Source: Escherichia phage ECO104 4-5-2. Taken from it: 43,051 nt of DNA. A program made the position numbers and the translations under genes. The DNA lies in sequence record OR844702; one strand, given 5' to 3'. Positions 37,047 through 37,615 of this stretch are shown here, piece by piece (position 1 is the stretch's first letter; every line of letters begins with the position of its first letter). The notes under the pieces were generated by a model that was not told where the DNA came from, searched no databases, and saw only the letters and a program-made list of their open reading frames with translations.

Positions 37047-37465
37047 GGGGTAGCACTACAGGGCATTCAGAGGGTGCAGGTGTAAACAAGCACTTCATAT
37101 TTATTATACTTACGCGAGGCCCTCCCTCACCCGACCAAGGCGTCAATCCCCCCCATGGGGTAGGTCTCTGGGAATTCACAGGGGTGGGGGTGGGGGGGAG
37201 TGGTGCTAATCCCTCTGCGTAACGCTGTGTATCGCCCTGTGCTGCCCTGTGCTCTATGGCAGTACCTAAGGGAGTCTTCGACTCTCTACGCTGTACAAGG
37301 CAAGCCTATGTGCTTCTCTGTGCTCTCTCTGTTGAGGGTGCAGGAGGGCGCATGCTTGCCTATTTTGTAGATACATTGAATGCACTGTGATGCACTGAGA
37401 GATGCCTATGTCTATCCCTGAGCTTACCTCTTTTGCCTATAGGCTATGCAATGTACAGCTAATGC

Positions 37466-37494
37466 TTGACGCAGGGTTAGCGCTGTGTTATGCT
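37466..37494 (+). promoter_or_regulatory. Sigma70-type early promoter (TTGACG-17 bp-TATGCT)
   Basis: Near-consensus -35/-10 with a 17-bp spacer, ~120 bp upstream of the first early gene. Confidence 0.5.
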
Positions 37495-37570
37495 GTTGCC
37501 TGTAGTACTTGCTCTTTAACAATCAGGGAAGTCGATGCTAACTCAGCGCTGAGGTAGTGTAGGGTAATGC

Positions 37571-37601
37571 TTATATAATACATTCAGCTAATGTGTGACA
37601 G
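37571..37601 (+). promoter_or_regulatory. Conserved 31-bp motif (ttatataatacattcagctaatgtgtgacag), copy 1
   Basis: Repeated with 28/31 identity at 38214..38244; both copies end ~12 nt before the SD of an early gene and contain a perfect TATAAT. Confidence 0.4.
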
Positions 37602-37615
37602 TACAGGAGCAGTAA

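Follow-up and report, generated by a model that had tools for sequence, protein, structure and literature searches.

In the T7 model, phage DNA forms concatemers with one copy of the terminal repeat at each junction; the terminase cuts at both repeat boundaries, and fill-in synthesis duplicates the repeat. The genome of T7 (NC_001604) has a terminal repeat of 160 bp with flanking arrays of short repeats, followed by the post-repeat sequence ATCTGTT and by the early promoters A1-A3. The post-repeat site is an RNA polymerase pause that is needed for packaging.

Among the Slopekvirinae, direct terminal repeats (DTRs) are annotated for KP34 (GQ413938, 216 bp), KpV475 (243 bp) and phiKDA1 (NC_027980, 267 bp). 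The KP34 boundaries are those of the GenBank annotation, since the text of the paper describing this phage mentions neither repeats nor ends. For fHe-Kpn01 (MN380459), PhageTerm was combined with restriction digests, Sanger sequencing of phage DNA and a ligation assay to map a DTR of 222 bp with blunt ends (PMC7291057). In all four phages the repeat is located between the tailspike gene and the first early gene, as is the region described here.

The window, which is the whole stretch of 43,051 nucleotides that was analysed (Escherichia phage ECO104 4-5-2, OR844702), is from a KP34/PAS7-like podovirus of the Autographiviridae, Slopekvirinae. All long ORFs are found on the plus strand, and the gene order is that of phiKMV and KP34. 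PHROG profiles identify a single-subunit T7-type RNA polymerase (11772-14351) directly upstream of the structural genes, and also a portal protein, a major capsid protein, the small and large terminase subunits and an endolysin. The closest named relatives are the Escherichia phages PAS7 and P64441, both deposited as circular records without termini. PAS7 represents the proposed genus Cepavirus of the Slopekvirinae (PMC11522302). The two ends of the window overlap exactly over 77 bp (1-77 is identical to 42975-43051), which shows that the contig was closed into a circle by a k-mer assembler. The ends of the window are thus artefacts, and the unique unit has 42,974 bp.

The largest gap in this unit that is free of ORFs of at least 60 aa extends from 37047 to 37615. 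It comprises 569 nt, while the next largest gap has 352 nt, and all ORFs inside it have 56 aa or less. A first-pass annotation, made from the letters of the sequence, had described it as the only long non-coding region (570 bp) and had placed it between the last late and the first early gene, and this description holds. The flanking features are:

35688..37046, plus strand: putative tailspike gene, the last late gene (452-aa ORF with a weak Beta_helix match below the Pfam cut-off)
37605-37609, plus strand: ribosome-binding site AGGAG upstream of the first early gene
37616-38212, plus strand: first early gene (198 aa; the product of the first PAS7 gene has 44% identity to it, E 3e-61)

The putative tailspike occupies the position of the annotated tailspikes of PAS7, phiKDA1 and KPPK108.1, and no sequence relation to the PAS7 tailspike was found. 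The first early gene is conserved. A location between the last late and the first early gene, in a genome transcribed in one direction, is that of a T7-type junction. An Rfam scan of 36800-38000 with E values up to 1 returned nothing but one meaningless miRNA match.

When the 569-bp gap was used as a blastn query, unannotated GenBank contigs were found that are 98-100% identical across its length. Four sequences of this kind (OR848645, OR847174, OR844898 and OR850875) correspond to window positions of about 36930 to 37615. They come from wastewater and were deposited as unverified contigs of phages labelled 'Listeria', 'Escherichia' and 'Salmonella', host labels that are doubtful. Three short contigs of this set break 75-115 nt before the stop codon of the tailspike gene, which suggests mixed populations that differ in the tailspike module.

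We consider it very likely that the gap represents a T7-type concatemer junction, at which the two ends of a linear genome are joined in a circularised assembly, as would be ordinary for this family. In this reading, it would consist of three zones. A conserved block ahead of the repeat (37047-37123) would be followed by a merged copy of the DTR (about 227 bp, from about 37125 to 37351) that would be present at both ends of virion DNA. The remainder (37352-37615) would be the early control region, with a repeated 14-nt element, a sigma-70 promoter, a BoxA and the ribosome-binding site. The central feature is:

37125..37351, no strand assigned: predicted DTR of about 227 bp in a single collapsed copy, with boundaries taken from fHe-Kpn01, KP34, KpV475 and phiKDA1

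The evidence for this comes primarily from relatives with known ends. The blastn search with the gap retrieved 96 phage records, mostly from Klebsiella Drulisvirus, and all of them align within 37060-37203. Window positions 37072-37203 match a stretch that spans the annotated start of the right DTR in KP34, KpV475 and KPPK108.1, where DTRs of 216-244 bp are annotated. In a six-genome alignment, with boundaries transferred from donor genomes of other genera at 60-80% identity, those of fHe-Kpn01 fall on 37125 and 37351 and those of KP34 on 37124 and 37351; KpV475 agrees within 1 nt. The left boundary of phiKDA1 corresponds to 37125. The left end of fHe-Kpn01 starts with CCTCACCCTGAACG (boundary form CCTCACCC...), and its repeat terminates on the right with ...GGTGGGCGCTC followed by CGTCTTACCTATTTTG (boundary ...GGGCGCTC/CGTCTTACCTATTTTG, with the slash marking the boundary). 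The window reads ...ACGCGAGGCCCTC/CCTCACCCGACC at 37125 and ...GGAGGGCGC/ATGCTTGCCTATTTTG after 37351. The left genome end is thus predicted at 37124/37125 and the right end of the repeat at 37351-37353. Homology across both boundaries to an experimentally mapped repeat is as expected of a T7-type DTR. The first-pass proposal that the physical ends and terminal repeats lie in this gap is therefore supported by homology to annotated and mapped relatives, not by direct mapping.

The candidate repeat is present as a single copy in the window, which fits a collapsed DTR in a circular assembly; the assembler is predicted to have merged both copies. Its GC content is 60% compared to about 48% genome-wide. 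Conservation was computed against 5 relatives from 3-4 genera. Relative to a regional mean identity of 0.45, it reaches 0.8-0.92 at 37104-37134, 0.76 on a small palindrome described below, and 0.68-0.75 over 37324-37364, where 37364 is the highest point (0.75). In the middle (37214-37304), the repeat is not alignable (identity 0-0.3). Conservation thus peaks on both boundaries, which indicates selection there, as is expected of cutting and recognition sites. A stable hairpin beyond the small palindrome was considered and rejected: in single-strand DNA folding of the repeat start and the right boundary, no structure was found beyond that of shuffled controls (z from +1.2 to -1.25).

Confidence is lower for the right boundary than for the left one because the conserved element GCTTRCCTNTTTTG occurs twice (37354 and 37422) and because MAFFT places the phiKDA1 boundary on the second copy. 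The copies are:

37354..37367, plus strand: GCTT(A/G)CCT(C/A)TTTTG, copy 1, a conserved boundary element that abuts the right end of the repeat
37422..37435, plus strand: copy 2 of the element, GCTTACCTCTTTTG, 44 nt upstream of the -35 hexamer of the early promoter

The termini may be in this gap with a longer repeat, its right end at about 37418-37421, just before the second copy, which would result in a DTR of about 295 bp. Such a length is within the range of the family (160 to 414 bp), GCTTACCTCTTTTG at 37422 is identical over 14 nt to the sequence that follows the DTR of phiKDA1, and MAFFT sets the boundary of this phage to 37421. However, manual alignment of the flanks maps the same boundary to 37353. 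The sequences left of the boundary in phiKDA1, KP34 and fHe-Kpn01 (GGAGGTGGGCGC, GGGGTGCGC and GGTGGGCGC, respectively) match 37340-37351 and not 37405-37418. In addition, PAS7, P64441 and the related locus L050 retain ...GCAGGAG.G....CTTGCCTATTTTG at the first copy of the element. We therefore consider the longer repeat unlikely. The shorter repeat is favoured, with its right end at 37351-37353, while an end near 37420 is possible.

Within the repeat of about 227 bp, the left part carries two features:

37148..37160, no strand assigned: C7-AT-G4 element, the equivalent of CCCCCATAGGGGG, about 25 nt from the left terminus
37181..37198, plus strand: G-rich tract GGGGTGGGGGTGGGGGGG (repeat nt 57-74), conserved in position, hypervariable in length and sequence

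The first of these consists of a C7 run (37148-37154) and a 10-bp palindrome CCCCATGGGG (37151-37160). Both had been seen at this place before, but the C7 run overlaps the palindrome and is not contained in it. In nine reference phages (T7, T3, gh-1, SP6, phiKMV, LIMElight, phiKDA1, KP34 and fHe-Kpn01), a C-run starts at nt 25-29 from the left end, in most cases with (A/G)TAG and a G-run next to it on the right. CCCCCATAGGGGG is found exactly at nt 26-38 in both T7 and KP34, and the element starts at nt 24-25 in 28 relatives from IMG/VR. When the predicted end is taken as start, the C-run of the window also begins at repeat nt 24-25 (nt 24 for a left end at 37125). The predicted terminus at 37125, CCTCACCC, has the form YCTCAC, as in T7 (TCTCAC). 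The window thus has the family landmarks of a left end, a YCTCAC terminus with a C-run and palindrome about 25 nt inside. As these are shared with the T7 end, the T7 model is appropriate. Inside the repeat, both this palindrome with its C-run and the G-rich tract can be regarded as conserved landmarks.

The three consecutive G-runs at 37181-37198 had been noted as a possible G-quadruplex or a slippage-prone site. The runs are present, and the tract has the four-run quadruplex motif (G3+N1-7 x4) when its G7 is split as GGG-G-GGG. This is the only such motif on the plus strand of the genome, and it occurs in 1% of mononucleotide shuffles of the gap region. A G-rich tract is found at repeat nt 55-75 in nearly all relatives, and L031, a close relative, also fits the motif with a different sequence. 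It might thus be assumed that a G-quadruplex arises here and has a function, for example in the pausing of a polymerase or of packaging within the repeat. We consider this improbable, as PAS7 and L050 are devoid of a four-run motif at this site and Drulisvirus genomes have either a plain G9-G15 homopolymer, too short for four G3 runs, or, in KP34-type genomes, GGGGGCGGGG. Across relatives, the longest G run at this position varies from 4-5 to 23; many have an uninterrupted run of G9-G15 or up to G23, and versions with varying interruptions occur in the clade of the window itself. Two metagenomic contigs end inside the G-tract. It is G-richness and length instability that are conserved, not quadruplex potential, so the slippage part of the earlier suggestion is supported by the length variation while a functional quadruplex is not. 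Of all homopolymers in the genome, C7 and G7 (37192-37198) are the longest two, and we flag their lengths for a check at the level of reads.

The region left of the repeat contains one of the most conserved segments:

37072..37123, plus strand: conserved block GGTGCAGGTGTAAAC..GCAC..ATTTATTATACTTACGCGAGGCCCT, recognised by conservation against relatives

This block is unique in the genome. We infer that it may be a recognition or cleavage context for formation of the right genome end. It could also be read as a promoter for the phage RNA polymerase (..TTATTATACTTACGCGAGG..), given its strong conservation and the resemblance of the KP34-type sequence TTAGACTCACGCGAGG, with the core GACTCAC, to the T7 promoter consensus (TACGACTCACTATAGG, with the same core). 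The window has TACTTAC rather than GACTCAC. The motif is unique on the plus strand, a degenerate 13-mer search found minus-strand matches inside genes only, and no recurrent 16-mer of this kind exists in the intergenic gaps. A role as a phage promoter is thus unlikely, and as a general phage promoter, the block was rejected because it is unique on the plus strand and absent from the recurrent intergenic 16-mers. A 'phage promoter' motif of KP34-type phages, AGCCTATAGC...GCTATGTGAA, has been published (PMC4411677) and is absent from the window. The occurrence of GCCTATAGG at 37435 is at chance level.

Short repeats are frequent in the gap and had in part been listed before:

37234..37332, plus strand: dispersed and tandem (C)TGTGCT and CTCTCT repeats in the right half of the repeat
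37380..37397, plus strand: two copies of ATGCACTG in the leader region (37380-37387 and 37390-37397)

The tandem duplication of GCCCTGTGCT at 37234-37253 was confirmed by Tandem Repeats Finder (period 10, 2.0 copies, 100% match), and TGTGCTCTCTC occurs with 2.3 copies at 37309-37332. TGTGCT is enriched in the repeat (here taken as 228 bp), with four copies where 0.045 are expected, compared to eight copies in the remaining 42.7 kb (Poisson p 1.7e-7, not corrected for the number of hexamers, 4096). In KP34, three copies of CCTGTGC are found in the corresponding part of the DTR. CTCTCTGT occurs near the right end of the repeat, as in T7. The ATGCACTG pair, reported from about 37379 to 37397, exists; this short two-copy repeat is indistinguishable from chance, and no conservation in relatives was found. 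The DTR and its flank are rich in repeats as a whole, and the short repeats are part of this and not separate features.

To the right of the repeat, the early control region contains, in addition to the two copies of the 14-nt element:

37466..37494, plus strand: predicted sigma-70-type early promoter, TTGACG-17-TATGCT with a TG extension
37510..37523, plus strand: rrn-type BoxA TGCTCTTTAACAAT in the predicted early leader

Copy 1 of the element is conserved in KP34, fHe-Kpn01, phiKDA1, PAS7, P64441 and L050, and it may be the analogue of the post-repeat ATCTGTT site of T7. A third copy is present at 38699, 44 nt upstream of a -35 hexamer at 38743. The same spacing of 44 nt between element and -35 hexamer is found in KP34. 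The early promoter is retained nearly base for base in P64441, L050 and the further relative L125, while its surroundings have diverged. Strong sigma-70 promoters are found elsewhere in the window. Two of them (38734-38769, TTGACT-17-TATAAG, and 39052-39087, TTGACT-17-TATAGT) are inside an identical duplicated block of 36 nt, AAATAGTTGTTGACTTCCCTGATTTAAGTAGTTATA, and another (TTGACA-17-TATAGT) is located at about 5493.

In the rRNA operons of E. coli, BoxA is the site of antitermination by Nus factors. The rrn BoxA-spacer sequence is ugcucuuuaacaau (PMC2724277, PMC2176067), and the sequence in the window is identical to it in 14 of 14 nt, which cover BoxA and the first part of the spacer. The BoxA consensus UGCUCUUUAACAA occurs exactly at 37510-37522, the only exact copy in the window, about 15 nt downstream of the -10 hexamer and about 8 nt from the predicted transcription start (near 37501). 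It is conserved in PAS7, P64441, L050 and L125. The 14-nt core GCTCTTTAACAATC is found without mismatch at nt 812-825 of T7, between promoter A3 and gene 0.3; in the literature that was searched, we found no description of a BoxA in T7. An IMG/VR scan detected GCTCTTTAAYAATCAGG, which represents BoxA and spacer, in 105 viral contigs (including loci L051-L154). Most of these are unrelated phages or prophages with flanking hairpin-like sequences, a context that resembles nut sites. Among the 105 loci, L050 and L125 are the only members of this clade. From the analogy with rrn operons, we infer that this BoxA would bring Nus factors to the early transcripts of the host polymerase.

The enzymes expected to cut at the junction, the two terminase subunits, are encoded in the window and are of the type found in the family, as expected for a T7-type junction. 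Two group I introns that score above the Rfam gathering score were detected as well:

30732-31031, plus strand: terminase small subunit (phrog_891)
31046-31618 and 31900-33123, plus strand: terminase large subunit, split by an intron (phrog_38, phrog_17672)
31551-31899: group I intron in the terminase large subunit gene (Rfam match 31551-31804; RF00028, 65.4 bits, E 1.6e-14)
3356-4042: group I intron in the DNA polymerase gene, the second of the two (RF00028; its 51 bits slightly exceed the gathering score)

The terminase intron is devoid of an ORF. In PAS7, P64441 and phiKDA1, the gene for the large subunit is uninterrupted and is about 250 nt shorter over the matched span, and in a few Klebsiella phages the annotation divides it into two parts, in some cases along with an HNH endonuclease. 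The second intron interrupts the gene for a family A DNA polymerase, the C-terminal part of which is encoded at 4097-5026. It contains an ORF (3468-4010) with an HNH_3 endonuclease domain.

If the gap is the junction of a T7-type genome, events can be outlined by analogy with T7. Replication would lead to head-to-tail concatemers with one copy of the repeat at each junction. The terminase would read the conserved boundary sequences and cut at both of them, and fill-in synthesis would duplicate the repeat so that each packaged genome carries a copy at both ends. After injection, host RNA polymerase would initiate at the promoter that directly follows the left repeat, and the early transcript would probably acquire Nus factors through BoxA. 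Cutting and fill-in, the roles of the boundary blocks and Nus recruitment are presumed from knowledge of T7 and of rrn operons. It is highly improbable that the gap is merely an intergenic regulatory region of a genome that is circularly permuted by headful packaging and lacks fixed ends: sequence alone does not prove fixed ends, the assembly closes as a circle and the closest relatives are deposited as circular records, but a collapsed DTR would assemble as a circle as well, the gap is homologous across both boundaries to an experimentally mapped DTR, T7-type landmarks are found at the right distances, the terminase matches PHROG families of other family members, and relatives have mapped blunt fixed ends with DTRs instead of permuted genomes.

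More speculatively, the concatemer junction may carry a set of family-wide signals at fixed distances, namely the YCTCAC end, the palindrome 25 nt inside and a CCTAT-T-rich post-repeat element. The terminase might measure its cuts from the palindrome, the post-repeat element might be the counterpart of the T7 site at which transcription pauses for packaging, and this E. coli-infecting clade, like T7, might use the exact BoxA in the manner of rRNA operons, so that host polymerase reads through terminators of the early operon. We regard this combined proposal as tentative, with odds well against it.

The prediction provides both genome ends for this phage as well as for its clade, in which PAS7 and P64441 were deposited as circles. 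The virion genome would have about 43.2 kb, that is the 42,974-bp unit plus an extra copy of the repeat. Several lineages of the family retain a few landmarks of the T7 end, namely YCTCAC, a C-run palindrome that starts at nt 25-29 and a post-repeat element. An exact BoxA of the rRNA type is present in the early leader of the clade, with a core that also occurs in T7. Both observations are testable, but neither alters the understanding of these phages.

Compared to the Slopekvirinae with known DTRs, the region has homologous blocks at both boundaries and the same terminus start, CCTCACCC. Also shared are a C-run palindrome at nt 25, G-rich sequence around nt 55-75, a right half that contains (C)CTGTGC repeats, and the element CTTRCYTNTTTTG straight after the repeat. 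There are differences in detail. The palindrome is C7ATG4 in the window and C5ATAG5 in these relatives, the first gene follows the repeat at a distance of about 265 nt compared to more than 1 kb in KP34, and BoxA is absent from the left ends of KP34 and fHe-Kpn01.

With T7, the region shares the YCTCAC terminus, the C-run palindrome (in T7 as CCCCCATAGGGGG at nt 26-38), CTCTCTGT near the right end of the repeat and short repeats flanking the repeat, with host promoters after it. A CCTAT-T-rich element directly follows the repeat in both cases (GCCTATTTTG in the window, CCCT/ATCTGTT in T7 and T3), and GCTCTTTAACAATC is present in the early leader. Beyond these landmarks, the sequences are not alignable. 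T7 has three strong promoters before its first gene, whereas the window has a single weak-to-moderate one, with further strong promoters at 38743 and 39060. A phage promoter of the phiOL or phiOR type of T7 was not found in searches of the window. With rrn operons, the region shares BoxA, which in the window is predicted to lie shortly after a sigma-70 promoter, within an untranslated leader.
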